This document shows positions 1,687-43,406 of a DNA stretch of 64,000 bases, one piece after another; positions within the stretch are counted from its first letter, which is position 1; each line of letters starts with the position of its first letter. A program made the translations under genes and the position numbers. This DNA comes from Escherichia coli (GTDB taxonomy: Bacteria; Pseudomonadota; Gammaproteobacteria; Enterobacterales; Enterobacteriaceae), in the NCBI RefSeq assembly GCF_044324875.1, contig NZ_CP172185.1. One strand, written 5' to 3'. The notes beneath the pieces were generated by a model that saw only the letters and a list, made by a program, of their open reading frames with translations, was not told the DNA's origin and did not search any database.

Positions 1687-2612
<926 letters not shown>

Positions 2613-2663
2613 AGTTCCTCCAGATGGATCGGGTTATGAATGCATAAATCTTATCATAATCAT

Positions 2664-3896
2664 TTATGCGACGGGGTCTATTTCCCAGCCAGTGCGGCAA
2701 TCAGTAAAGAGGCCTTGCGGGCAGCGTCCTAATGTCACCCGCGTTGCCTGCTGCCAGTTAGCGAAATCAGTAATCGCCTGACGTAACCCTTTTTGCAGCG
2801 TTGTCGTTGGTTTAATGCCTTCCTGTAACCACAGAGAGATAACTTCAAGGATGCCTGTCTGGCGATGCATTTTGGCATCCATTCGCCCAACTAATTGCCC
2901 ACGATGTAATAACGGCAGAACAAAATAGCCATACTGGCGTTTCGGCGCTGGGGTATAGCACTCCAGCCGGTAGCTAAAATCAAAAAGCTGCTCTGCGCGT
3001 TTACGATCCCAGACAACAGGATCAAAAGGCGAAAGTACCGCGCTGTGCGTTGCAGTGAGCTTTCCGGCCAGCGCACGCTCGAGTAGCGGCAGCAAATCAG
3101 CATGCAGCCAAATATTGCCCAATTTTTCAACATGCACAGCAATGATTTGCCGCTGTTCAGCCCTCGCTTCGCGCCACGCTGCCAGTGCCGGACGTTTCAG
3201 CCGATAGTAATCTGCCAGCCACTGTTCGCGGAATATTCCCAGGCTACGCGCACTGTTATCCAGCATGATGATTTCTGCTTCTGTTTGCGAAACGAGATCG
3301 CGCTCATCATCCCAGTCAGGCATGACACGGTAGGTTAAATCATAAACGCGCTGGAAGTTGCGCCGTTCAATCACCATCACTTTCCCGGCAGTAAATAAAC
3401 CTTCCAGATGCCGTTTATGCGGCTTCCATTCCCACCAGCCGCTTGCACCTTTACGAGGATGCTCAAAATCGGCTGAACGTACCGGCCCCTTATCATGAAT
3501 ATGCTGAATTAACTGTGCAATTTCCGCCTCATGTTCCTGCATCCAGGCGTCATTGTATTTCCAGCCCATTTTTTCAGGTGCCAGCATGCGGTGGCGAATA
3601 AGACGAAAGTCGCTACGCGGCATAAAGCAGGCTTCATGCGCCCAGTATTCCATTAATTCGCCACGCGCCAGAGACTCATCCAGCCACTGGGCAGGATAAT
3701 TTCCCAGACGACTGAAAAGCACCAGATATGGACTACGGGCAACAATATTAATGGTATCGATTTGCAGCAAGGACATGCGGGAGATCGTTGCCGGAATATC
3801 CTCCAACGATGCTCGACGGCGGGGTTTGTTTAACAGGCCTTGCGCGGCGAGGTGAAGATTACGCGCATCAGCAAGAGAGAGGTGCGGCAGCGACAT
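2664..3896 (-). CDS. ycaQ: Winged-helix DNA-binding protein YcaQ (410 aa)
   Basis: 410-aa ORF in conserved position between lpxK and ycaR. Confidence 0.9.
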   Translation of the reverse strand: MSLPHLSLADARNLHLAAQGLLNKPRRRASLEDIPATISRMSLLQIDTINIVARSPYLVLFSRLGNYPAQWLDESLARGELMEYWAHEACFMPRSDFRLIRHRMLAPEKMGWKYNDAWMQEHEAEIAQLIQHIHDKGPVRSADFEHPRKGASGWWEWKPHKRHLEGLFTAGKVMVIERRNFQRVYDLTYRVMPDWDDERDLVSQTEAEIIMLDNSARSLGIFREQWLADYYRLKRPALAAWREARAEQRQIIAVHVEKLGNIWLHADLLPLLERALAGKLTATHSAVLSPFDPVVWDRKRAEQLFDFSYRLECYTPAPKRQYGYFVLPLLHRGQLVGRMDAKMHRQTGILEVISLWLQEGIKPTTTLQKGLRQAITDFANWQQATRVTLGRCPQGLFTDCRTGWEIDPVA

Positions 3897-3932
3897 TCAT
3901 GACTCCATCAATCGAACGCTGCCGCGGCGTAA

Positions 3933-4919
3933 CTAGTTGCCAGAAGCCAGCGAGGTTAGTTGCGCAAGCAGTTTCGCTGGTTCATCACCTGAAAGCTGTG
4001 CGTCTACAGGCAAATACCACCAATTTTCTTCTGCAAAGGCCCGGCATTTCACCGCATCTTTTTCAGTCATTACCAGCGTTTGCCCGGCGTTTACCAACGC
4101 GCTGACATCCGCATGGTTCAAAGACTGATGATCGGCCAGCGGTACACATTTTTCCGGTTGTACGCCGCACATCTTCAGCGTGGCAAAAAAGCGCGGCGGA
4201 TGTCCAATCCCCGCCATCGCCACTACATGTTCAAGCTGAGCAACGTCACAACGCGTACCGGTACGTAAATTCACCGCCTGACCCGGCAGCAGATGCATGG
4301 GGATTTCACCGCTGCGGGGGACACCGCCGTTGACGATTACCGCATCAACCGACTTTAAGCGCCCCGCTCGCTCACGCATTGGCCCCGCCGGCAACCACCA
4401 ACCATTGCCAAAGCGACGCACACCATCAATAACGACAATTTCCACATCACGCGCCAGACGGTAATGCTGTAAACCGTCGTCGGTTACGATGATCTGCACA
4501 TCAGGGTGTTGCGCCAGAATGGCTTTTACCGCATCAGAACGCACGGGAGAAACCGCAACGGGCGCGCCAGTGCGTTGATAAATCAACACAGGTTCATCAC
4601 CCGCCTGTGCTGTGGTGGTATCTGCCGACAATAACAGCGGATAAGATTCAGCCTTACCACCATATCCCCGCGATACGACCCCCACGCGAATACCGCGCTG
4701 TTGCAGCTGTTCCACCAGCCAGATAACGACCGGGGTTTTTCCGTTGCCGCCTGCGGTGAGATTACCAACCACGACAACCGGTACGGGGGCACGCCAGGCG
4801 CGCTTCAGTTTTAGTTTATAGCAAAGACGGATCGCGCCACTCACCAGGCCATACAACCAGGAGAGTGGCAGCAATAGCCGCCACAAAGGGGATTCACCAG
4901 ACCAGATTTTTTCGATCAT
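3933..4919 (-). CDS. lpxK: Tetraacyldisaccharide 4'-kinase
   Basis: 328-aa ORF with P-loop [14 protein letters not shown]; overlaps msbA stop. Confidence 0.96.
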
Positions 4920-6664
4920 TGACCAAACTGCATTTTGTGAAGTTGCGCGTAAACGCCACGGTGCTCAAGCAAATCGTTATGCGTACCGCGTTCCACAATG
5001 ACACCATCCTCGACGACCACGATTTCGTCTGCCTTTTCAATGGTAGACAAGCGGTGGGCAATCACCAGAGAGGTACGGTTTTTCTGCAACTCATCCAGTG
5101 CCGCCTGAATCGCACGTTCGGATTCGGTATCCAACGCCGAGGTAGCTTCGTCCAGAATCAGAATCGGGCTATCACGCAACAAGGCTCGAGCGATGGCAAT
5201 ACGCTGACGCTGACCGCCAGAGAGCAGCACGCCGTTTTCACCAATCACTGTATCGAGACCGTTATCCATCTTATTGATGAAGTCCATGGCGTAGGCCATA
5301 CGCGCCGCTTCTTCAATTTGCTCACGGCTGTACTGTTCAGTCCGTGCGTAAGCAATGTTGTTGGCAACCGTATCGTTAAACAGATGGACATTCTGCGACA
5401 CCAGAGCAACCTGGTTACGTAACGACGCCAGGGTATACTCGCGCAGATCGTGACCATCCATCAGGATTTCGCCTTCATCAATATCGTAAAAACGTGTGAT
5501 TAGGCTGGCGATGGTTGATTTACCTGAACCAGAGCGTCCAACCAGAGCAACCGTCTTCCCTGCCGGAATTTTCAGGTTGATGTTACGCAATGCGGGCACG
5601 TCACGTCCCGGATAAGTAAAGGTGACATTGCGGAATTCCACGTCGCCAGTCGCACGCTCGATCACGCGCTTACCTTCGTCTTTCTCCTGCTCACTGTCCA
5701 GAATGGTAAACAGCGTCTGACAAGCCGCCATACCGCGCTGGAACTGGGCGTTAACGTTGGTCAGCGATTTCAGCGGACGCATCAGTGCAATCATTGAAGA
5801 GAAAACAACGGTAATCGTACCGGCAGTCAGGCTATCCATGACACTTGGGAAGCTCGCCGCATACAGAACAAACGCCAGCGCCAAAGAGGCGATCAGCTGA
5901 ATGATCGGATCAGAGATGGAAGAGGCTGAAACCATTTTCATCCCCTGAAGACGCATTCGGTTACTGACTTTATCGAAGCGTTTCGTTTCCACTTCCTGAC
6001 CACCGAAAATCAATACTTCTTTGTGGCCCTTCAGCATTTGTTCTGCGCTGGTGGTCACCTGCCCCATGGTGTTCTGCATGTTTTTACTGATGTTACGAAA
6101 ACGCTTCGATACAACGCGAATCGCAATCGAAACAATCGGTGCCAGCACAATCAAAATGATCGACAGTTGCCAGCTGTAATAGAACATCATGATGAACAGG
6201 CCGATGATCGACGCACCTTCACGCACAACAGTAATCAGTGCGCCGGAAGAAGAAGAAGCAACCTGTTCGGAATCGTAGGTGATACGTGACAACAGCGTAC
6301 CCGTTGACTGTTTGTCAAAAAATGAAACAGGCATTCCCATCATGTGACCAAACAGGCGGCGACGCATGGTCATTACCACCTTTCCTGATACCCAGGAGAT
6401 ACAGTAGCTGGAGACATAGCTGGTGATACCACGTAAAATCATCAGCCCGATCACCACCAGCGGCATCCACACCAGCACGGAGCGATCTGTTTTACCAAAG
6501 CCATCATCAAGAAGTGGCTTAAGGAGCGATAACATGAAGGTATCGCTGGCTGCGTTGAGGATTAACGCTACGCCCGCCACGATCAGACCCGCTTTAAAAG
6601 GCGCAATGGTTGGCCACAGTCGGCGGAACGTCTGCCACGTAGAGAGATCTTTGTCGTTATGCAT
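4916..6664 (-). CDS. msbA: Lipid A/LPS ABC exporter (flippase) MsbA
   Basis: 582-aa ORF with TM domain plus ABC ATPase motifs ([17 protein letters not shown]). Confidence 0.97.
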
Positions 6665-30857: not shown

Positions 30858-31027
30858 AATGGCTCACTCAAGCTTGCTCACGATTGATTCCAGTAACAAA
30901 CCGTATTGTGTAATTATTTCTATAGCAGTTCGCTATATAGGCTTGTATACATCGAATAATTTGAAAATCAAAGAGATAGGTAGATTTTCACTCGAAAGTA
31001 GTATTACGTGTAAGTGAGGAGTAATTA

Positions 31028-31041
31028 TTGTTCGGTATCAA
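31028..31041 (-). promoter_or_regulatory. FNR binding site of dmsA promoter
   Basis: Minus strand reads TTGATACCGAACAA (TTGAT-N4-AACAA) about 170 nt upstream of dmsA ATG. Confidence 0.7.
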
Positions 31042-31153
31042 AGGGAGACAAAAAAAGCGCCCGCAGGAGATTTAACGGTACTTACTCCTCTTGCTGATTT
31101 CCTTATTTTTCAATAAGTAAACAAAAACAAGGGGAGCAAATTATCACAAATAA

Positions 31154-32158
31154 TTACTGGTCGATGGACAGTTTATGGACACTTTCAGCCAGCGGATTAA
31201 AGCTGATCGCATCCTGTAAAAAGTCCGGTGAAAAATGCGCATACGTCATCGTTTGCTGAATCGTGGCGTGACCCAGGATCCTCTGCAACGTGACGATGTT
31301 CCCGCCGTTCATCATGAAATGCGTGGCGAACGTGTGCCGCATGACATGCGTGGCCTGCCCTTTGGGTAAGTCGGGCTTCACCTCCTGAAGGATCTCCCTG
31401 AAACTGAGATAATCAACCTGATATAACAGGCCGGTCCGGCGGGTTTTAATTAACGGCACAACGGAATCAGCTACAGGAACCGAGCGCGATTTCCCGTTCT
31501 TTGTGTTAAAGAACGTCACCCTGTTACCCACGATGTGTTCCCCGCGAAGCGTTGACGCCTCTTTCCATCTGGCCCCGGTCGAAAGGCACAGAATGGCAAT
31601 GCGTCGTGCATCACCCTCAAGCCGTTTCAGAAGGCGATCAATCTCGTCATCTGAAAGAAAGGCCATTTCTGTATTCTGAACCTTGAGTTTACGTATTCCG
31701 CGCACAGGGTTTTCGTTATGATAAACCTCCGCGTCAATTAACAACGAAAACATCGCAGATAAGGCGCACAGGTCGCGATTGATACTGGACGGCATCAGTC
31801 CCGCCTGCAACTTATCCGAGCGATACTCAATCACGAATTTTCGTGTCATCTGGCTGGCGCGCGGGTCCCCCATTTCACGTATCACCTTCTCCAGTCTGGT
31901 TCTGTAGGTATCACCATATGCCTGATTACGACCATCAAGCATCCACCACACCTCAATCAGTTCTGATAACCGCCGTTGATCGGCGGGCCTTGCCTGCCAC
32001 GGGTTATTGTGGAAATTCTGAAGAACGTATCTTTCGAATTCCTGCGCCTTTGATTTCAGGGTGAAAATCTTACGAATCCGCCTTCCTCCCGCCCCCTGAG
32101 GCCTTACATCAACCTGATAACGTCCGTCTTTGAGTTGCTTAATCGACATGATCAGCAC
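31154..32158 (-). CDS. int: Phage tyrosine integrase (P2 Int-like)
   Basis: 334 aa; conserved ILCLSTGARW...ATHVMRHTFATHFMMNGG...LQRILGH...YAHF (R, H-x-x-R, Y catalytic residues). Confidence 0.93.
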   Translation of the reverse strand: MLIMSIKQLKDGRYQVDVRPQGAGGRRIRKIFTLKSKAQEFERYVLQNFHNNPWQARPADQRRLSELIEVWWMLDGRNQAYGDTYRTRLEKVIREMGDPRASQMTRKFVIEYRSDKLQAGLMPSSINRDLCALSAMFSLLIDAEVYHNENPVRGIRKLKVQNTEMAFLSDDEIDRLLKRLEGDARRIAILCLSTGARWKEASTLRGEHIVGNRVTFFNTKNGKSRSVPVADSVVPLIKTRRTGLLYQVDYLSFREILQEVKPDLPKGQATHVMRHTFATHFMMNGGNIVTLQRILGHATIQQTMTYAHFSPDFLQDAISFNPLAESVHKLSIDQ

Positions 32159-32218: not shown

Positions 32219-32560
32219 TCAGCCAGCATTGCGGCCTGATTGGGGTGATTTTTGGGTATTGCGGGTTGAAACCTGATCGTCCTCCGACTGCGTGGAGCCA
32301 TCAAGAGAGAGAGCCGGGGCGATCTGACCGGCAACAGGTAGCGTCTTATCTTTGATTAGCCAGAACATATATTTTTCAAACCGATCCACTTGAAGGACGG
32401 CCTCAACAATCTTTGCTCTGGCGATCTTTTGCCCTGACTCATAATTCCTGACAGTTGCCAGAGATAACCCTGTAATATCAGCAAATTGCTTTTGAGTTAG
32501 CCCTTCCGTCTTGCGTATCAAACGCAACTTTTTCGCATAGTCTATTGACAAGATACTCAT
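32219..32560 (-). CDS. Phage immunity repressor (P2 C-like, XRE-type HTH)
   Basis: 113 aa; HTH LTQKQFADITGLSLATVRNYESG; position between int and divergent early operon. Confidence 0.8.
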   Translation of the reverse strand: MSILSIDYAKKLRLIRKTEGLTQKQFADITGLSLATVRNYESGQKIARAKIVEAVLQVDRFEKYMFWLIKDKTLPVAGQIAPALSLDGSTQSEDDQVSTRNTQKSPQSGRNAG

Positions 32561-32663: not shown

Positions 32664-33185
32664 ATGCGGGAGATTATTGCCGACAAAGAGTTATCTGGCG
32701 CTCAACCGGTTCAGGATGATGGCGCGGACAATGAATTCATTGAAGCTGCCAACGACAACGAACACCTGGAAACCAAAACCAGACCGTCCTACAAAAAGGG
32801 CGCAACCCTACGACTGGACGGCCCAGTCGCAGGACTTGTGTCACTGGAAAAAGGGGCTGCCTATCTGGGGGTAACAAAATCTGCGCTACGCGCCGCCATT
32901 CAGCGCGGGCAGATGCCGGGTCACAAAACGCGCTCAAATCCCGAAGATGAAAAGTCAGACGGTACATGGTGGTTTAACGCCAAAGCCTGGGACGAACTAG
33001 CCGACGAACTACTGGAGTGCGAACCGCCAGAGTGGCACAACTGGAAAAGCTACTGGACGTACGACCGCAAGAAAAGAAAGTTTTCACCGGCAAACAAGGA
33101 GGACTGCCAGACCGTTAAAGGTAAGCAGGTTTACTCCCCCAGAGTTTCAAAACTGGAGCAACTCAAAAACAACCAGCCCGGCTAA
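32664..33185 (+). CDS. Cox/excisionase-like early protein (173 aa)
   Basis: AGAGGA SD 7 nt upstream; central HTH-like AYLGVTKSALRAAIQRGQMP; first gene of rightward early operon. Confidence 0.55.
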   Translation: MREIIADKELSGAQPVQDDGADNEFIEAANDNEHLETKTRPSYKKGATLRLDGPVAGLVSLEKGAAYLGVTKSALRAAIQRGQMPGHKTRSNPEDEKSDGTWWFNAKAWDELADELLECEPPEWHNWKSYWTYDRKKRKFSPANKEDCQTVKGKQVYSPRVSKLEQLKNNQPG

Positions 33186-34394: not shown

Positions 34395-34474
34395 ACAGGC
34401 GTTTAACACCAGAAACAACCAGAAACATCCGCTCACGCGGAGGGGTTGACCCGCTCAAAAAGGAGAAATCAGGA

Positions 34475-34768
34475 ATGCTTAATAATAAAAAAAACCGAAT
34501 CATTGATAACAGTGAACAGGTCAACAAAATAATCGAAGGCACAAACAAATTAATTAAGAAAAAAAACAAACTAAGCCGTGAATTAATGGAACATCCGGAA
34601 GAAATATTATTAGCCATGATGCACCAGACAGAAGCGATAGCCATCGCCCTTGCCGTGCAGGCGCTTTCTGAGTTCCGGGAAGAAAACATCAGGCTGGCTC
34701 AGGAGCTGAAAAACCTCAGACGTCAGCTTCAGAGCACTGAGGCTGGCACGTCATCACGAATACACTGA
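34475..34768 (+). CDS. Hypothetical Lys-rich protein (97 aa) in AT-rich island
   Basis: AAGGAG SD; AT-rich codon usage unlike flanking phage DNA. Confidence 0.55.
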   Translation: MLNNKKNRIIDNSEQVNKIIEGTNKLIKKKNKLSRELMEHPEEILLAMMHQTEAIAIALAVQALSEFREENIRLAQELKNLRRQLQSTEAGTSSRIH

Positions 34769-34778
34769 GGGCCACACC

Positions 34779-34988
34779 ATGACTGCAATTCTGAGAAGAC
34801 GCAATAAAACGCTTTTTACCGATACATCCGGGATGGAATACGAAGTGGAAAGCAGTGTCATCGCCACCACCACCCGATGCCCGGCAGGTGACGAACTGAT
34901 TTACGTCCACCTGACGGACGGGTCACAGATAACCGTCCTGACAGAGTCATGGCGCGAACTCGAGATAATAAGCGAGGTAAGAACATGA
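34779..34988 (+). CDS. Hypothetical phage early protein (69 aa)
   Basis: GAGGG SD; compact spacing. Confidence 0.5.
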   Translation: MTAILRRRNKTLFTDTSGMEYEVESSVIATTTRCPAGDELIYVHLTDGSQITVLTESWRELEIISEVRT

Positions 34989-35197
34989 GCAGCAAACACG
35001 ATACCAACGCACGCAGACCAGGCAAAGAGGCGCGTCACCATATCGCCGTAATGCGCAACCTGCTTATGAGTGAAATCGACGATTTTGTGGCAGGCCTGGG
35101 GCAACCGGGCGAACCAGCAACACCAGGCCAGATACACAGGGAATTACGCCGCCGCGTGGAAAACGTCGTGGATTACGTCATAAACCCGAACGACTGA
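34985..35197 (+). CDS. Hypothetical phage early protein (70 aa)
   Basis: ATG overlapping previous stop; GAGGT SD. Confidence 0.5.
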   Translation: MSSKHDTNARRPGKEARHHIAVMRNLLMSEIDDFVAGLGQPGEPATPGQIHRELRRRVENVVDYVINPND

Positions 35198-35236
35198 CGG
35201 GAACATGGCGAGCGTCAGATGACACACGCAGGGCAC

Positions 35237-35719
35237 TTATCGGGAAAAACCGATCGTAATGGCAGCCATCATCTTTTCAGCGAAAGAGAGAGATTCACGA
35301 TGACTGATATTCAGAGACATACAGGCTTTGTTGTACGCCACATTTTCCATGCATTCCAGGACAGGAGAGTCATGCATCTCAAGCTCTGGAAGGCGTGCCA
35401 GCAGAGCTTCCGTACTGAGGAGGGCGCTTTTGGTAATCAACTCATTGTAGCGATGGGCATGCTCACTCGCCGCCTGCGCACGTTGCCCGAAACGACATAT
35501 GAAATTACAGGCTCCGAGAACCACCACCACTGCCCCAAGCACCCAGCCGAAATGCCAGCCGGCTACGATGAACGCACCCGCCGCAAGGATCAAAATGTTG
35601 ATGATCGCATCAAGGCGACGATTGAATACCGCCGCGATGCGCTCCAGCCAGTAGCTGTACCAGAGACGGAACATGACCTCATCCCGTTCTCTCGATTTTT
35701 TACGTTGGTTGTTTTGCAT
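35237..35719 (-). CDS. Membrane protein (160 aa, central double TM hairpin), opposite strand to early operon
   Basis: GAGGGA SD before ATG; hydrophobic stretch INILILAAGAFIVAGWHFGWVLGAVVVVLGACNFI; more protein-like than the overlapping plus-strand ORF. Confidence 0.55.
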   Translation of the reverse strand: MQNNQRKKSRERDEVMFRLWYSYWLERIAAVFNRRLDAIINILILAAGAFIVAGWHFGWVLGAVVVVLGACNFICRFGQRAQAASEHAHRYNELITKSALLSTEALLARLPELEMHDSPVLECMENVAYNKACMSLNISHRESLSFAEKMMAAITIGFSR

Positions 35720-35953
35720 GGTGTTTTATCCCTCATCGTCATCGCTCTGCCCCTAATCAGCGCAGAGTGCAGGGTAACCTGGCTCGTGGAATTTTTGCAG
35801 CCAGACATCTTTACCCCCGGGCGTGTTGAACAAAGTGTCCGCCAGATCCACTGAACGGCGGATTCATCAATGCTAACACGCCCTTCTTTTCCGGTTGAAG
35901 GCGAAAAAACCGGACCATTACCCCGACACAAAACAGAACAACGGAGAACAACT

Positions 35954-36508
35954 ATGCCCGCACTTAAACCTATGGGTGTATCAGGTGTACCACCGAAGCA
36001 TGTCAGAGCCTGGACACAACAGGAAGATGCTCTACTGGTCGGTTTATACCCCTCCCACACCGTACCAGAACTGACAAAACACTTTCAGAGAACCGGGCCA
36101 GCAATACGAAGCCGCATCCGTCTTTTGCTCTCTCAGGGGGTTATCCACACCAAACAACCCCCCCTGAATACAAAAGAACTCAACACGCTCATCAGGAATC
36201 GCCACACAAAAACCATCCGGGAACTCGCGAATGAACTGGGGCGCTCGACATCCACGGTGGGACTGAACCTGAGAAAAAGAGGGTACCGGTTCAGGAAATA
36301 CGGGGAACTCCACCACAGAGCCAGATACAGCGATCACCTGGTGGAGTTGGTAACTGAACTGCGCGATGAACAGGGGATGACATTCAGCGAAATCAGAAAG
36401 TACATCCGGGACATGGCCGGGATATCCCTTAAAAGATGGGTCCTCGCCCGGCTTTACGCACGATATACCGCCGCTGACACCGTGCTTTGCGAACTGCTAC
36501 CGGACTGA
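35954..36508 (+). CDS. DNA-binding protein with repeated Myb/HTH-like units (~184 aa)
   Basis: Start at ATG with GGAGA SD (MPALKPMG); repeats resembling W-T-x-x-E-D-x-x-L Myb/SANT pattern. Confidence 0.5.
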   Translation: MPALKPMGVSGVPPKHVRAWTQQEDALLVGLYPSHTVPELTKHFQRTGPAIRSRIRLLLSQGVIHTKQPPLNTKELNTLIRNRHTKTIRELANELGRSTSTVGLNLRKRGYRFRKYGELHHRARYSDHLVELVTELRDEQGMTFSEIRKYIRDMAGISLKRWVLARLYARYTAADTVLCELLPD

Positions 36509-36606
36509 GTAACCACTATGCACACACAAAAAAACCGCTTGCCATGCCGCAATCAGTCAGGTTACATTTCCGCTGCACCTCATAAAACGGGTGCCGGGAT
36601 TGCAAC

Positions 36607-36648
36607 CCCCGCTGACAACTACAGCGCACAACCGCGCCAGCGGTTTTT
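36607..36648 (+). terminator. Candidate rho-independent terminator
   Basis: CCGCTG...CAGCGG hairpin followed by T7. Confidence 0.45.
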
Positions 36649-36828
36649 TTGTGCGTACCGTATCGCCACGTCTTTTTCGCGCCAGAATTATGGCGGGGCG
36701 TATGGGGCCGACTTCGGTCGGGCCGGTTTCTGTAGTTGCCGGTGGTTGCAACCCTGTACGTCTCGCCACCCAGAATTGCAACCTCTGGATGGTGAGTTTT
36801 CAAAACTTGCAACTACAGAGGCCACACC

Positions 36829-37053
36829 ATGGCAAACCGCAAACAACAGCGCGCATACGCTGCGCGTCGTCACATCCAGACTGAAATCAACCGCAGACTT
36901 TTCCGCGCATTCCGCGTCGCGCATATCATGCACATCAATATGCTGCATGAGCGCAGCCACGCACTGTCAAACATGTATTCCGCCGCTGTATTCAGCTACC
37001 TGGCGGATGACCTGCGCGAGCTGCAGGACCTCATTAACCAGCACCACCACTAA
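36829..37053 (+). CDS. Hypothetical small basic protein (74 aa)
   Basis: ATG preceded by AGAGG; preferred over overlapping low-complexity 205-aa ORF. Confidence 0.4.
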   Translation: MANRKQQRAYAARRHIQTEINRRLFRAFRVAHIMHINMLHERSHALSNMYSAAVFSYLADDLRELQDLINQHHH

Positions 37054-37121
37054 TCAACATCCCGGAGCCATCCCGCCCCCGTACGCGGGAGGCTTCCGCA
37101 CGTCCGTTTCCGGAGGTTCTC

Positions 37122-37535
37122 ATGAAGAGCGTTAAGGGACTTTCAGATATTCAGGATTTTTTTAACTGGATGTGGGCGGTGGATCCACGCCTCGCTTCCC
37201 GTCTCAATGACCTGCACGACTATTACCGCCGCGCCTGTAAACAGGCAGCCCGCAGCGCTGCCACATACGGGGATTTTTCCTTCACCGTTGACGACCGTTA
37301 CCGCGTGGATGTCAGAGACCAGAACCACAGCCTGGAGCTGGGCCTGTTCCACATCAACGGGTGCGACAGCAGCGTTATCAGCTGGTCATCGTCAGAAATG
37401 GTGCTCGTTCTGGAAATGACCACCCACAGCGTGGTCGTGAAAGGGATTAAAACAGCAGAAGACTTTATCGCTGAATACCAGCGCCTTCTTGTGCTGTACC
37501 GGGCTGCATTTCAGAAGGCAACAGCAGGGGAGTAA
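37122..37535 (+). CDS. Hypothetical phage protein (137 aa) immediately upstream of gene A
   Basis: GGAGG SD; tight spacing to replication gene. Confidence 0.55.
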   Translation: MKSVKGLSDIQDFFNWMWAVDPRLASRLNDLHDYYRRACKQAARSAATYGDFSFTVDDRYRVDVRDQNHSLELGLFHINGCDSSVISWSSSEMVLVLEMTTHSVVVKGIKTAEDFIAEYQRLLVLYRAAFQKATAGE

Positions 37536-37540
37536 GCGGA

Positions 37541-40051
37541 ATGAGCCATCACCACACGCACCTGGCGTACCCGTGGAACGCCCCGCTGCCGGTTATTGAT
37601 CCTGAGACATTCGGCAGAGCATTACCGCAGAAGCCAACCGCATTACAACGGGCAATCCGTGACTACCTCACCGAAGACATTCGCACTGAGGCCCGGCTGG
37701 ATGAAGAAACCGTGGCCTTCCTGACAACCACGGACAAAGGTAAGCAAATTAATTCACACCTTCACCGGGACGAAGAGCGGCAGATAAGGCTGGATAAGCT
37801 GGCACGACACAGACGCGAAAATCCGCCAACGGCGGTATCGGAGGCGATAGCCGAACTTCGCACCCTGCCCTCGTTTCTTGCCAGTGTGTTGATCCGTGAT
37901 CTGGCACGACTGAACCGGAAACAGCAAAGTGCCCGCAGTGAAGGTGTAAAAAACAACAGCGCATACGTGGCCGATAATTTCGTTCGCCGTGGACTGCGTG
38001 CGCGCCTGAAACGTATTGAAAGGGTTAACGACCGCTTTGCAACGCCGGCATTCAAAACCACCGTCGTGCGCCATCGCCTTGAAGAACTGCTCACACTGCC
38101 GCAACTCACCCGTGACGAAATCCAGCGCATCGCCACACTGACAGCCCAGGCATTCGCCGCAGAATTTGAACGCATATGTGATGAAGTTCTTGAACGGACA
38201 GGCAAGGATAATGACAGCCCGGTTATCTGGCTGCTGGCCTACCAGAAGGTGGCACGCACAGCCTTAATTCTGGGCATGGTCCCGCCATACTGGCCGGAAC
38301 TCGAAATCAGGCACAACCGACGCACACCGCCGGACCCTGAACGGGTTCCGGGTGCGGTACTGCGCATCACCTGCGCGACCTGGTGGAACAACCAGTTACG
38401 CCACGTCGCCGATCTCTGGCGGGAGGAGTTACTGCGCGCCGCCGGCAGAGTGTCACGTAAACAATCCCCCTATATCAGCCATGAGTCACTACTGGAGTTC
38501 CGCGAGAAGCGCCAGCGCACCTGTGACTTTCTCAAAAGCTGGGATATTGAAAACGAAGACGGCGAGCGCCTGAGTCTGGAGGACGTGTACTGGGCTGGCC
38601 TGGGTAATCCACGCAACCGCCGCAATGAAATGATGGTCTGCGTCAGAGGGATGGAGATGGTGGCCGAATTACGGGCTGACGTCGCATTCTTCATCACAGT
38701 AACCACCCCTTCCCGCTTTCACAGCGTGAACGAGAACGGCAGCCTGAACCCGAAATACAACGGTGCCACAGTACGAGATGCCAGTGATTATCTGGTTTAC
38801 GACTTCTTCGCAGCCGTAAGAAAAAAAATAAAAAAAGAGGGGCTGGGCTGGTACGGCGTGCGAACCGCTGAGCCACACCATGACGGCACGCCACACTGGC
38901 ATATGCTGGTATTCACTTCCCCGGAGAACGCAGAGCGCATCATCGAAATTATGCGCGAAGCAGCAATTAAATCAGATCGCCACGAACTGGGGGACGATAT
39001 TTCACCGCGCTTTAAATGCGAGAAGATAGACCCGGAAAAAGGCACACCGGCAAGCTATATCGCAACCTATATCGGTAAGAACCTGGACGCCAGCGCTTTC
39101 CACAACAATGATCCGAAAACCGGAAAACCTTACGTTGATGAGGAATCCGGGAAAACCATGGCGGAAACCGTGGAGAACGCCATTGCCTGGGCAAGCCTTC
39201 ACCGCATCCGTCAGTTCCAGTTTTTCGGCATTCCGCCCCGCCAGGTATGGCGTGAACTCCGCCGCCTTGCAAGCCAGATGGAGCGCAACCCGGCATCACC
39301 GAAGCACCTCGATCATGACGATATTGACGCCATTATGGCTGCCGCAGATGTGGGATGTTTTGCCACCTACATCATGAAACAGGGTGGTGTGCTCATTCCG
39401 CGCAACCAGTATCTGGTCCGCACCGCATACGAAACCGCAGACGAAGCCAACGACTACGGTGAATTCCCTCAACGTATCTACGGAATCTGCGCCCCGTCGC
39501 TCGGAGAGCGGTACACCATATGCACCCATCCGGACGAGTGGAAACTGGTTAAAAAAGAAACAATACCAGACAACCGCACGGGCGAGGGTTTTGACCTTCA
39601 GGGCGACCCCGTCGCCCCTTGGACTCGTGGCAATAACTGTCCCCGGGATGAAAAAACAGACAATCACGGACCAGAAAACAGGCAGGACCCCGGACGACTG
39701 ACGCTTCCCGAAGAGAACCTGGAAAGCTGGCTGAATACGTTAAGCAGGGGCGATCGGAGAAAACTGCGTAATCAGATTAAAAATCAGCCGTCGGGCGCAA
39801 AAACCGGACAAAACGACACCACACCGGCATCTGACACCCCTGTAAGGGTGGGGATTGTCGTGCCTGCGGATACCGCGACGGACACGCAAATCGCCCGCGA
39901 ACTTGATGCGCTGGGTGTGCAGTTGCCTGACGCGGCCATCATCTCCGTGCGTAACGGTGCCCGTGTGCGTCTGGATAACGGGGGAACAGCGTACTGGGAT
40001 GAGTCAGCCCGTCACATCATCACAGAGCAGCCAGTGGAGGCGGGAGCATGA
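37541..40051 (+). CDS. Phage replication initiation endonuclease (P2 gpA-like, rolling-circle HUH)
   Basis: 836 aa; HUH-type motif GTPHWHMLVF and tyrosine motif YIATYIGKNLD. Confidence 0.88.
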   Translation: MSHHHTHLAYPWNAPLPVIDPETFGRALPQKPTALQRAIRDYLTEDIRTEARLDEETVAFLTTTDKGKQINSHLHRDEERQIRLDKLARHRRENPPTAVSEAIAELRTLPSFLASVLIRDLARLNRKQQSARSEGVKNNSAYVADNFVRRGLRARLKRIERVNDRFATPAFKTTVVRHRLEELLTLPQLTRDEIQRIATLTAQAFAAEFERICDEVLERTGKDNDSPVIWLLAYQKVARTALILGMVPPYWPELEIRHNRRTPPDPERVPGAVLRITCATWWNNQLRHVADLWREELLRAAGRVSRKQSPYISHESLLEFREKRQRTCDFLKSWDIENEDGERLSLEDVYWAGLGNPRNRRNEMMVCVRGMEMVAELRADVAFFITVTTPSRFHSVNENGSLNPKYNGATVRDASDYLVYDFFAAVRKKIKKEGLGWYGVRTAEPHHDGTPHWHMLVFTSPENAERIIEIMREAAIKSDRHELGDDISPRFKCEKIDPEKGTPASYIATYIGKNLDASAFHNNDPKTGKPYVDEESGKTMAETVENAIAWASLHRIRQFQFFGIPPRQVWRELRRLASQMERNPASPKHLDHDDIDAIMAAADVGCFATYIMKQGGVLIPRNQYLVRTAYETADEANDYGEFPQRIYGICAPSLGERYTICTHPDEWKLVKKETIPDNRTGEGFDLQGDPVAPWTRGNNCPRDEKTDNHGPENRQDPGRLTLPEENLESWLNTLSRGDRRKLRNQIKNQPSGAKTGQNDTTPASDTPVRVGIVVPADTATDTQIARELDALGVQLPDAAIISVRNGARVRLDNGGTAYWDESARHIITEQPVEAGA

Positions 40052-40860: not shown

Positions 40861-41616
40861 TTAACGCGTTTTTTCGCTGCTTTCCACTACCGGGGGATTT
40901 TTCCTCAGTGACTCTCCCTGAAGGACCACTCGGTGTGAGTTATGTACCAGTCTGTCCAGGATGGCATCTGCTGTTGTTGGGTTCTCCATCAGACCATGCC
41001 ATTTATCTACCGGGAACTGGCTTACCACTATCGTGCTGCTTTGTCCGTAACGATCCTCTATGAGCTCCAGAAGGTCATTACACTGGGCGTTACTTAACTG
41101 TTCCAGCCCCAGATCGTCCAGGATTAGAACCTGTATTTTTTGCAACTGTTTCAGATATTTCAGCCAGCTGCCATCAACACGTCCCTGAGCCAGTTGTTCC
41201 AGTAATCGCCCGGTTCTACAGTACCGGACGCTGTGTTTCTGTCGACATGCCTGTTCGCCCAGCGCATTGGCTATCCAGCTCTTGCCACATCCTGTCGGAC
41301 CGGTTATCAGCAGGTTTTTCCTGTGGGTTATGTAGTGGCCGTTCAGCAGTTCTCTCATCTGTTCAGCCCGCAGACCTCTTGAGGCCGGATAGCGCAGCCC
41401 TTCCGGTGTTGCCTGGTATTTCAGGCCGGCATTTTTTCTCAACCGTGCCACACGGCTGTTTTCCCTGCTCAGAAGCTCGTCATCAACCAGCAGCGTCAGC
41501 CTTTCCTCGAACGACAGTTCGTCGTAGGTCTGAGGCGTTTCCCGCTGCCGTATCAGGCTCCCGGCCATCGCCGGGAGTTTCAGTTGGGTCAGTTTGTTTA
41601 ACAGGTTATCACTCAT
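40861..41616 (-). CDS. istB: IS21-family helper ATPase IstB
   Basis: Start MSDNLLNKL; Walker A GPTGCGKS; 251 aa. Confidence 0.93.
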   Translation of the reverse strand: MSDNLLNKLTQLKLPAMAGSLIRQRETPQTYDELSFEERLTLLVDDELLSRENSRVARLRKNAGLKYQATPEGLRYPASRGLRAEQMRELLNGHYITHRKNLLITGPTGCGKSWIANALGEQACRQKHSVRYCRTGRLLEQLAQGRVDGSWLKYLKQLQKIQVLILDDLGLEQLSNAQCNDLLELIEDRYGQSSTIVVSQFPVDKWHGLMENPTTADAILDRLVHNSHRVVLQGESLRKNPPVVESSEKTR

Positions 41617-41632
41617 ACTGTTGTTCCTTCTG

Positions 41633-43168
41633 TCAGTGGTAGTAGCCCGGACCACGCAGGTTTTCATGCTCTGAAGCATATGCCGGATGTTGTTCGCCCT
41701 GGCGGGATAATGGAAGCTCCAGGTTCTCCCGATGGTGACGCAGCAGATTGTCGATAAAGCGTCTGTCAGGGGCGTTATAGTGCAGGGCAACGTAACAGGC
41801 CTTTTCCAGCCGTTCCGGGCCGTATTTTTTCTGAAGTGCCAGCAGCCCCAGAACTGCACGATAAGCCAGTTCCGGATGGGGTTTTGCCTTCAGCATGGAT
41901 TCAACCACCCGGCCTGTGGACGGGCCCGTACGTTTTCCCTGCTCGATCAGGCGTTCCGGTGTCCATGTCCCGTGCTGCCGGTGGCGCTCTGGCATGTGAA
42001 GCGGATTGGTTGTGTGTTTATATTCATGTGTGCTGCGCGGATGTTGCGCCACACACTGCCCCTTGTGCCAGAGCTGTACCACCGACTGCCCCGCCTTCAG
42101 TGACAGACGCTGACCGACCAGTTCGTGTGGAACGGAGTACCAGTGACGGGCATATTCAACGTGGTAGTCAGGGCCAACCTTCACAGCTTTGTATTCCGTG
42201 TATTCATAAGGTGCCAGAGGCAGCGGAGAGAGTGCTGGCGCATCCAGTATGCGGAAGCGTTCTGCACGGGTTTGATTGCCGTACCCCTTCATTGGCCGGT
42301 TATTCATGTCTGTCAGTAACTCCCTAAGGCGCGCATTCAGCGCCCTGAGCGTGTGGAAGGTTTCATTACGGATGCGGGCAAGAAGCCATCGTTCAACGAT
42401 GAGGACGCCGTTTTCTGCTTTTGGTTTATCTTTAGGTTTGCGTGGTCGGGCCGGGATGATAACCGTGCCATAGTGCTCAGCCAGTGCCTGATAACTGTCG
42501 TTGATGACAGGCTCATATCGATCGGCCTTTTTCACTGCGCTTCTGAGGTTATCGGGGATGAGCAGCTTCGGTACGCCGCCCAGGAAGGTCAGGCAACGGC
42601 TGTGGGCATTTAACCATGACATCATGTCCTGACCTTCGCACGCTTCAACGTAGGTATAGTTGGACGCCCCCATTACGGCCACGAAGATTGCCACGCGGCG
42701 TATCTCACCGGTGTCCGGATTAATAACAGGAACCGTAGGACCACAGAAGTCGATAAAAAGCTTTTCGCCGGCACGATGCTCCTGGCGCATGGAGAGACGT
42801 CGCGTTTTTTTCCACTCCCGGTAGCAACGGCAGAAGTGCGAGTATCCCATCGCTTTGTTACCCGCCTGTGCCTTGTATTCCATCCACAACAGTTGCCGCG
42901 TCACACCTGGTTTTCTCATTTCCGTATCGAAGTACAACATGTCAGGCATTACAAGCTCTGATGCAAAGGTGTCTTTGGGCGGAAAAATGAGTTTCTCCAG
43001 CGTGTCATGGGATATATCAGCAGGTAATGGCCATGACAGAGAAGAGGCTTTGAAGCGGGCAAGAACCTCAAAAACGGTTGAGGCGCTGATGTGTAACGTC
43101 AGTCCGATACAACGGTTAGTCAGCTTCTTGTCGAACTTGAGCTGAAGGATCTTAAAACAGGTTTCCAT
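41633..43168 (-). CDS. istA: IS21-family transposase IstA
   Basis: Start METCFKILQ with AGGAG SD; DDE integrase core region; 511 aa. Confidence 0.92.
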   Translation of the reverse strand: METCFKILQLKFDKKLTNRCIGLTLHISASTVFEVLARFKASSLSWPLPADISHDTLEKLIFPPKDTFASELVMPDMLYFDTEMRKPGVTRQLLWMEYKAQAGNKAMGYSHFCRCYREWKKTRRLSMRQEHRAGEKLFIDFCGPTVPVINPDTGEIRRVAIFVAVMGASNYTYVEACEGQDMMSWLNAHSRCLTFLGGVPKLLIPDNLRSAVKKADRYEPVINDSYQALAEHYGTVIIPARPRKPKDKPKAENGVLIVERWLLARIRNETFHTLRALNARLRELLTDMNNRPMKGYGNQTRAERFRILDAPALSPLPLAPYEYTEYKAVKVGPDYHVEYARHWYSVPHELVGQRLSLKAGQSVVQLWHKGQCVAQHPRSTHEYKHTTNPLHMPERHRQHGTWTPERLIEQGKRTGPSTGRVVESMLKAKPHPELAYRAVLGLLALQKKYGPERLEKACYVALHYNAPDRRFIDNLLRHHRENLELPLSRQGEQHPAYASEHENLRGPGYYH

Positions 43169-43406
43169 AGTGCTCCTGGATTTTCTCTTTCTGGACATTG
43201 ACGTCTCCACTGGTTTAAACACGGCAATGGAGACTGTGGTGAAAAGAGTTAATTCCCGGAGTGACTGGCAGGATGCCAATCAATGATCGGAAGCATGCCA
43301 AATCGTGATCGATTGTGATGCCAAACTGTGATCGGAGATGGATGCCAAATCATGATCGATTCGAATGCCAAACTGCGATCGATTCAGATGCCATTTTGCA
43401 TCAGTC

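Follow-up and report, generated by a model that had tools for sequence, protein, structure and literature searches.

A window of 64,000 nucleotides from the chromosome of Escherichia coli (contig NZ_CP172185.1; 'the window' denotes this whole stretch) contains a P88-like prophage, and the early operon of this prophage carries a small gene for a membrane protein in the backward orientation, i.e. against the transcription of its neighbours. The best explanation we can offer is that a cassette encoding a SLATT-like protein has been inserted backwards into the operon and acts in abortive infection or exclusion of phages. We put the probability of this reading at about 0.5, with the function deduced from the fold of the protein and the context of its gene. 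A preliminary description of the window had proposed an accessory cassette at this place, with superinfection exclusion or abortive infection as its candidate role, and it is supported in this respect, the role being a credible candidate: the gene lies on a 756-base-pair (bp) insertion, its product has a SLATT-like fold, and it is a lone antisense gene in 14 of 14 contexts. The features of the locus, including open reading frames (ORFs) and a neighbouring gene for a helix-turn-helix (HTH) protein, are as follows.

35206-35961: inserted cassette of 756 bp (blastn of window positions 34400-37200 against loci L015, L014 and L002; 23 bp in L015)
35237-35719, minus strand: gene for a SLATT-like membrane protein with two transmembrane helices, 160 amino acids (ORF with Shine-Dalgarno sequence, substitution rates, AlphaFold2 (AF2) model, Foldseek)
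35219-35854, plus strand: shadow ORF of 211 amino acids overlapping the minus-strand ORF completely, rejected as a gene
35720-35953: spacer of 234 bp, the presumed promoter or leader of the minus-strand cassette, also holding the ribosome-binding site of the HTH gene
35753-35851, minus strand: remnant of a decayed micro-ORF (small-ORF scan; alignment with CM2 and SCU-115)
35874-35917: conserved 45-bp block (91% identity over 45 bp to L004, the JNEC-KY176 locus, with flanks diverged to about 65-70%)
35890-35914: perfect inverted repeat TCCGGTT-N11-AACCGGA within the 45-bp block
35954-36508, plus strand: gene for a tandem Myb/SANT-like and HTH_11-like DNA-binding protein, 184 amino acids (phrog_323, E 3e-27)

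The existence of the membrane-protein gene and its coding strand are both well supported. The minus-strand ORF has a GAGGG Shine-Dalgarno sequence 9 nucleotides (nt) before its start codon. When the DNA sequences of three homologues, with amino-acid identities of 58%, 56% and 39%, were threaded onto the protein alignment, substitutions were found to concentrate at the third codon positions of the minus frame (codon-position counts e.g. 48/30/88). The proportions of nonsynonymous and synonymous differences (pN/pS) are 0.25/0.67 in the minus frame versus 0.36/0.30 in the plus frame, and amino-acid identity is 58% versus 33%. These three measures all favour the minus frame, and we therefore regard the membrane protein as the product of a real gene and the plus-strand ORF as its shadow. 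As an alternative gene the 211-codon ORF is excluded by its lower identity and by a ratio of nonsynonymous to synonymous substitution rates (dN/dS) of at least 1, compared with about 0.1-0.2 for the minus frame. That the shadow frame is open at all is explained by the sense ORF, which uses no TTA, CTA or TCA codons. Substitution rates, hydropathy and the AF2 model thus agree with the preliminary description in placing a 160-residue protein with two transmembrane segments on the strand opposite to the early operon.

The same strand assignment touches two existing annotations. In the Salmonella prophage Fels-2 (L022, NC_010463, positions 3414-3962) and in the Yersinia phage vB_YenM_42.18 (L005, positions 4788-5453), the SLATT-like gene and the micro-ORF that accompanies it are unannotated, and opposite-strand shadow ORFs are annotated instead, namely STM2733.1 together with part of STM2735 in the former and gp08 in the latter. 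The annotated coding sequences STM2733.1 and gp08 are counterparts of the plus-strand shadow ORF of the window and have been called on the wrong strand.

The architecture of the protein is simple. A single hydrophobic stretch (residues 37-75) is divided by a turn of 3-5 residues into two transmembrane helices, as judged from both the Kyte-Doolittle profile and the AF2 model; the predicted helices TM1 and TM2 span approximately residues 37-54 and 58-75, with a cytoplasmic helical bundle besides. The model, calculated from an alignment of 110 sequences, has a predicted local distance difference test score (pLDDT) of 96.3 and a predicted TM-score of 0.88; an earlier run on 6 sequences had reached a pLDDT of 49 and was discarded in its favour. 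Helices cover residues 2-52, 58-75 and 77-99, i.e. a long N-terminal helix runs into TM1 and, after the turn, TM2 runs into another long helix, and three further helices pack against the N-terminal one. In the family alignment a conserved YSY.LE..NRR.D helix precedes TM1 and an A..Q...Y..L helix follows TM2. The N-terminus holds 9 K/R against 4 D/E residues, and the topology is therefore predicted to be N-in/C-in: the protein would form a helical hairpin in the inner membrane with about three residues (WHF) facing the periplasm. About 120 of the 160 residues are predicted to be cytoplasmic, where the N-terminal helix and some 85 C-terminal residues build the bundle according to the model and hydropathy. 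From the Pfam and topology check of the preliminary claim the two-segment hairpin has thus been retained, while no Pfam family was obtained for the membrane protein.

SLATT-domain effectors reportedly go back to the work of Burroughs and colleagues in 2015, and SLATT systems now comprise CBASS, RADAR, AbiA/UG23, DRT3, DRT10/UG17 RT-SLATT and TIR-SLATT ('Shaseng'). The SLATT proteins are predicted pore-forming effectors of CBASS, RADAR, DRT and TIR systems (PMC9226505; 10.64898/2026.04.29.721553; 10.1101/2024.12.27.630466). A Foldseek search of AFDB50 with our model returned 108 matches at E ≤ 1e-3, and the TMq values of the top 50 range from 0.74 to 0.94 (at least 0.8 in 47 of the 50). Many of the matches are named SLATT or DUF4231 in UniProt (TM-scores 0.8-0.94, 20-51% identity), one of them being a Fels-2 prophage protein, and in BFVD, a set of viral structures, the top matches are likewise labelled SLATT (TM-scores 0.5-0.64). 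Profile searches point in the same direction below threshold: SLATT_1, SLATT_4 or SLATT_fungal matched 14 of the 21 family members scanned, and in 13 of them such a match was the top-scoring one. The protein also matches phrog_6315 (E 5e-65). Neither a sequence search of the PDB nor Foldseek against it gave a meaningful match, so there is no solved structure for comparison. On the strength of the matching fold and architecture we place the family in the SLATT superfamily, as a SLATT-like subfamily that existing models appear to miss. It resembles SLATT effectors in the two-transmembrane hairpin set between conserved cytoplasmic helices and in its occurrence on a mobile element, in a setting of biological conflict. 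It differs from them in being solo, with no SMODS, SLOG, TIR or RT partner and with profile matches below curated cut-offs, in lying antisense within temperate-phage operons, and in being paired with a proline-rich micro-ORF.

A search of 1.84 billion cluster representatives with a hidden Markov model of the family yielded 161 clusters (E ≤ 1e-3, clustering at 50% identity). Lengths are mostly 146-183 amino acids, typically some 150-165, and among the best 150 of the 161 there is no protein longer than 211 amino acids and no fused domain; the family is therefore a standalone one. The subfamily represented in the window is rare: of 5426 complete E. coli genomes 31 carry it, and a set of 5.8 billion proteins contains 6 clusters of it. 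Its paralogues are common: P0176 occurs in other P88-like prophages (671 Enterobacteriaceae contigs), and P0155 in lambdoid prophages of E. coli (more than 1000 contigs), where it sits between the pL operon and cI, antisense to pL. A paralogue together with its micro-ORF was located between the pL operon and cI at positions 6001-6495 of L006-L009, 6001-6492 of L017 and 3875-4447 of L023. We compared 14 independent contexts: three P88-like alleles and the P0176 paralogue; the Yersinia Firavirus; Fels-2 and a 186-like element; lambdoid prophages of E. coli, which have the P0155 paralogue, and of Citrobacter, Providencia and Pseudomonas; phage EKP1, where the gene lies between Q and the holin; the end of an Enterobacter prophage; and a metagenomic phage contig. 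In every one of them the SLATT-like gene, or the pair of gene and micro-ORF, is the lone opposite-strand unit inside a unidirectional phage operon. The family represents widespread standalone prophage genes that probably act against competing phages.

The conserved partner of the SLATT-like gene is a proline-rich micro-ORF on the same strand. It was found in 12 of the 14 contexts as an ORF of 22-48 codons ending 4-23 nt before the SLATT start codon, and gene callers or annotators had already called it in four loci. Its peptide reads MSDSDKFHVPRQPAPAPEKGQGRDDEEG in CM2 and MSDSDNFHVLPRPAPAPKPEPGQDKK in Fels-2, with the motifs ..HKPAPPEE.. in Yersinia, ..KPPVPPKPP.. in lambdoid prophages and ..TPPPP.. 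in Providencia, EKP1 and Pseudomonas. All 12 micro-ORFs have at least three prolines within six residues, a feature of just 6% of the 723 small ORFs drawn from these loci as controls (P about 2e-15 in a binomial test, an exponent to be taken loosely, as some of the loci are related). Among CM2, KY176 and Fels-2 the peptide stays constant across switches between serine codon families (TCT, AGT, TCA; AGC, TCT), synonymous changes run across its PAPAP core, and the first nine codons of CM2 and Fels-2 differ at 1/1/7 sites by codon position. The serine switches and the synonymous core changes indicate that in these relatives the peptide sequence itself, as judged from codon substitutions, is under selection. 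A PHROG search with ten micropeptides identified no family, the P0176 paralogue has no micro-ORF, and in the literature searched no SLATT system was described with a proline-rich micro-ORF partner. Most likely the micropeptide is a co-factor, an inhibitor or a translational leader of the SLATT gene.

In the window itself the micro-ORF has decayed. Its ancestral ATG (35808-35806) is followed by a 1-nt deletion in the A-run just downstream, which shifts the frame, so that the reading frame of this ATG is now 72 codons long and continues past the start of the SLATT gene. The frame carrying the motif, ..KFHEPGYPALCAD*, opens only from a GTG at 35851 and meets an early stop at 35753. A programmed -1 frameshift at the A-run was set aside, given that there is no canonical slippery heptamer and that the proline core is eroded. 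As a consequence of this decay the cassette of the window may be mis-regulated or weakened.

The cassette is delimited by comparison with the sister prophage L015, which has 23 bp where the window carries 756 bp (35206-35961), and it follows that the gene and the 234-bp region upstream of it arrived as one cassette. Like a moron, it is a segment that some close relatives have, and others lack, amid conserved phage genes. The spacer between the two divergent genes corresponds well to the divergent region of about 230 bp in the preliminary description. Within it, the 45-bp block, which contains an inverted repeat, is retained in the JNEC-KY176 locus, which is without the HTH gene; it is unique in the window, with 0 expected by chance, and was found only in L001, L003, L004 and L025. 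No T-run flanks the repeat on either side, and an intrinsic terminator is therefore excluded; the block with its repeat could be an operator or an RNA hairpin. An inverted repeat shared by the subfamilies upstream of the cassette was looked for, and none was found.

From these data the following course of events may be proposed. In the lysogen, with the early promoter repressed, the cassette would be transcribed from its own, non-consensus promoter. An infecting phage would then supply a cytoplasmic trigger, upon which the SLATT-like protein would oligomerise, and the oligomer would permeabilise the membrane, the mode of action proposed for SLATT effectors, or depolarise it, with the infection being aborted or excluded. 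Upon induction of the resident prophage, head-on early transcription and antisense RNA would silence the gene, and the phage's own lytic cycle would be spared. A more specific version is worth only tentative mention: that micropeptide and standalone SLATT-like protein together make up an unrecognised, widespread prophage defence cassette that has no separate enzymatic sensor, that tells self from non-self by an obligatory antisense placement in early or late operons, and in which the micropeptide serves as a trigger-sensitive inhibitor or a stalling leader.

A number of observations weigh against abortive infection or exclusion by a SLATT-like cassette. Known SLATT proteins work with a sensor or a signal-generating partner, and no SMODS, SLOG, TIR, RT or other signal-generating partner was seen in the window or in the 14 contexts. 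The assignment to the superfamily falls short of formal thresholds. The window protein scores 16.5 bits with the NCBIfam model SLATT_1 against a cut-off of 41, and the best family member reaches 24.2 bits with SLATT_4 against a cut-off of 55, so that none attains the curated cut-offs of 41-55. Pfam gives no family match at E ≤ 0.001, SLATT_fungal alone appearing at E ≤ 0.1 and in 2 of 110 members, and no PADLOC model matches the membrane protein. As regards expression, the opposite orientation of the gene relative to the operon implies a promoter of its own, and independent transcription of the cassette is presumed from orientation alone. A scan for the sigma-70 consensus found no promoter in the spacer and none in front of the gene in 12 of the 14 relatives, and no intrinsic terminator follows the SLATT-like gene. 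The GC content (0.50-0.57 across 35050-36100) is like that of the neighbouring early genes and shows no contrast with the flanks. Finally, the PAPAPE proline core has been lost from the micro-ORF of the window, with SCU-115 being identical. The window protein also shows an excess of nonsynonymous divergence, its pN to the Yersinia outgroup being 0.408 compared with 0.324 and 0.336, which may reflect relaxed constraint.

The last two points lead to the possibility that, in a family that is otherwise functional, the cassette of the window lineage is a decaying remnant whose SLATT gene is poorly expressed or non-functional. The state of the micro-ORF, with its 1-nt deletion, lost proline core, early stop and ATG-initiated frame now running for 72 codons across the SLATT start, speaks for such decay, as do the excess nonsynonymous distance on the window branch and an IS21 insertion in the prophage. 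Yet the 160-codon ORF is intact and at least 99% identical in 26 genomes, the near-invariant family residues R35, G62, Y91 and A128 are kept, the gene has its own Shine-Dalgarno sequence, and the P0176 paralogue does without any micro-ORF, and we consider a decaying remnant unlikely, if not negligibly so. Somewhat less likely again is an addiction or maintenance module, in which a SLATT-like toxin would be held in check by the micropeptide or by the antisense early RNA and set free when the prophage is lost or disturbed, with any anti-phage effect being secondary. The small upstream ORF is tightly coupled to the gene and under peptide selection, as in toxin-antitoxin pairs, the gene lies opposite a second transcript, a layout shared with type I systems, and ParM partition genes in many Xuanwuvirus genomes suggest plasmid-like maintenance. 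Such a module is hard to reconcile with the common P0176 paralogue lacking a micro-ORF, and with the coexistence of an intact SLATT ORF and a decayed micro-ORF in at least 26 genomes with no evident lethality; moreover, the antisense early RNA would be absent precisely in the stable lysogen. An exclusion role is classical for prophage and phage membrane genes (P22 SieA, T4 Imm), and the cassette could in principle encode a protein of this type, which physically blocks the entry of incoming phage DNA while the cell survives. A small inner-membrane protein of a prophage, oriented such that it can be expressed apart from the lytic operons, would suit this role. With about three periplasmic residues (WHF) and some 120 of 160 residues in the cytoplasm, however, there is almost nothing to touch an injection apparatus. 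In its fold the protein resembles SLATT effectors rather than known Sie proteins, and PHROG, PADLOC and NCBIfam provide no link to Sie families, so that we find this mechanism improbable, a little more so than addiction.

By far the least probable explanation, in our view, is the one favoured in the preliminary description, i.e. a divergent pair of effector and regulator, with the HTH protein acting at the shared 234-bp region to regulate the membrane gene. The HTH gene starts at an ATG (35954) behind GGAG and ends at 36508. Homologue N-termini begin with M.LKPMG and sister-prophage homology begins at 35962, and for these reasons the 212-residue form from 35870 given in some RefSeq records is, as far as the alignments tell, probably too long. 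Three HTH-like repeats had been claimed for its 184-residue product; the length stands, and so do two of the repeats, the first with a W-x3-ED Myb/SANT signature and the second HTH_11-like, which are alike (hhalign E 5e-4), while the third received no statistical support. Members of its family match HTH_11 (3 of 16 at E ≤ 1e-3) and Myb_DNA-bind_6, and the best PDB relative is the tandem-HTH nuclear magnetic resonance structure 2lvs (E 9e-5); Pfam, PADLOC and NCBIfam gave no above-threshold family for the HTH protein of the window. The divergent layout and the inverted repeat in the spacer would fit a regulatory pair, and the HTH gene does adjoin in 30 of the 31 E. coli genomes that have the SLATT subfamily. 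The two genes do not travel together across prophages, for each was found without the other. The HTH gene is full-length in 61 E. coli genomes against 31 for the SLATT subfamily, and about half of its carriers (some 35, at 87-89% nucleotide identity), as well as the Citrobacter phage Shae_phiSM, have it without the membrane gene. There it is part of the operon and directly follows the preceding early gene, with a gap of 14-27 bp. JNEC-KY176 shows the converse, a membrane gene with no HTH gene, and still conserves the inverted repeat, and paralogues, whether in this slot or in lambdoid phages, never have this neighbour. The regulator-effector pair is thus unsupported, and the two genes lie side by side because each of them sits in one variable slot upstream of isrK. 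The HTH gene belongs to the ordinary, variable complement of the early operon in Xuanwuvirus and adjoins the cassette from outside.

Among better-known temperate-phage genes, those for lambda RexB and P22 SieB and SieA also specify membrane proteins near the immunity or early region with expected expression in the lysogen, and the P0155 paralogue occupies the very place of lambda rexAB, between the pL operon and cI. No sequence or fold similarity to any of these proteins was detected, and the orientation against neighbouring phage transcripts also sets the SLATT-like genes apart; RexB has four transmembrane segments, whereas the window protein has two and no RexA-like sensor. The likeness to RexB or to Sie-type exclusion proteins would therefore seem to be a general one only. 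The cassette can also be compared with old, tin and fun/Z of the P2 family, which are accessory Peduoviridae cargo of variable presence among close relatives. It differs from the cos-adjacent hotspot of P2 (Rousset et al. 2022, PMC9122126) in its position within the early operon upstream of the isrK-C4 segment and in having no PADLOC model.

The element harbouring the cassette is a P88-like prophage (Xuanwuvirus, Peduoviridae; P2 family) that adjoins dmsA in the E. coli chromosome. P2 itself, used as the reference phage in the preliminary description, is excluded as the carrier. The framework of its early region is given by the following genes.

31154-32158, minus strand: integrase
32219-32560, minus strand: C repressor
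32664-33185, plus strand: cox, after which the rightward early operon begins
37541-40051: GpA-like replication endonuclease, which closes the rightward early operon

The slot just upstream of the isrK-C4 segment varies: in other P88-like phages it may be empty or contain a protease lipoprotein, Dam, a ParE-like toxin or DUF4406, and the early operon of Xuanwuvirus is variable and rich in cargo towards its 3' end. In JNEC-KY176 (L004, positions 2267-4876) the same slot of the early operon contains genes for a 3'-5' exonuclease, a ParE-family toxin-like protein, a Dam methylase and a DUF4406 protein.

Downstream of the HTH gene, the plus strand encodes the Hfq-binding small RNA isrK (36575-36650; Rfam 60 bits) followed by the C4 antisense RNA (36686-36773; Rfam 80 bits), both above the gathering score, and then a 'derepression protein' of 74 amino acids (36829-37053). 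A promoter-like site (36539-36568) and a terminator-like hairpin (36630-36645) are also present in the isrK-C4 segment. Altogether this is an RNA-controlled antirepressor module of the P1/P4/Gifsy type in a P2-family early region, just upstream of gpA. Some part of a 2-kb query containing the segment was matched by 1203 of 5426 E. coli genomes, and all nine phage records matching the query do so over the segment itself. A 205-codon ORF on the plus strand (36518-37135) that covers the RNA genes is almost certainly a shadow ORF; its counterpart is annotated as a 'transcriptional regulator' in Xuanwuvirus P88_4B11 (L027, 4001-4618) and has been called as a 245-codon gene in L010-L013. Further downstream, an IS21-family element (40861-43279, minus strand) lies inside the prophage, where it separates the genes that follow gpA from the portal gene. 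It encodes the IstA transposase (41633-43279) and the IstB helper ATPase (40861-41859; NCBIfam 284 and 257 bits, respectively); strain TUM9803 (L001) lacks it in a stretch that is identical apart from this. At the junction of prophage and chromosome, between dmsA and the integrase gene, there is the enterobacterial small RNA STnc130 (30948-31082, plus strand; Rfam 126 bits).

So far, SLATT proteins have been known only from immune systems made up of several genes, in which they act downstream as effectors, and their activation is poorly understood. The literature that we searched on standalone prophage SLATT proteins, STM2734 and Xuanwuvirus contained no functional study. The family described here has members in P2-like phages, in the Fels-2 prophage of Salmonella LT2 and, at the place of rex, in lambdoid prophages; their orientation follows one stereotype throughout, and a micropeptide under selection usually accompanies them. 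Our analysis removes a false pairing of regulator and effector, keeps the accessory candidate and corrects its partner to the micro-ORF. The family is compact and clonable (about 0.7 kb) and offers a route to the SLATT trigger and to the role of the micropeptide, for which the intact alleles are a better experimental entry point than the perhaps partly decayed cassette of the window. It also lets one ask whether antisense embedding is a general switch between self and non-self for prophage cargo. If the more specific version proposed above is true, convergent transcription would silence the cassette only when its carrier phage goes lytic, and the micropeptide would couple the release of the effector to infection-induced changes in translation.

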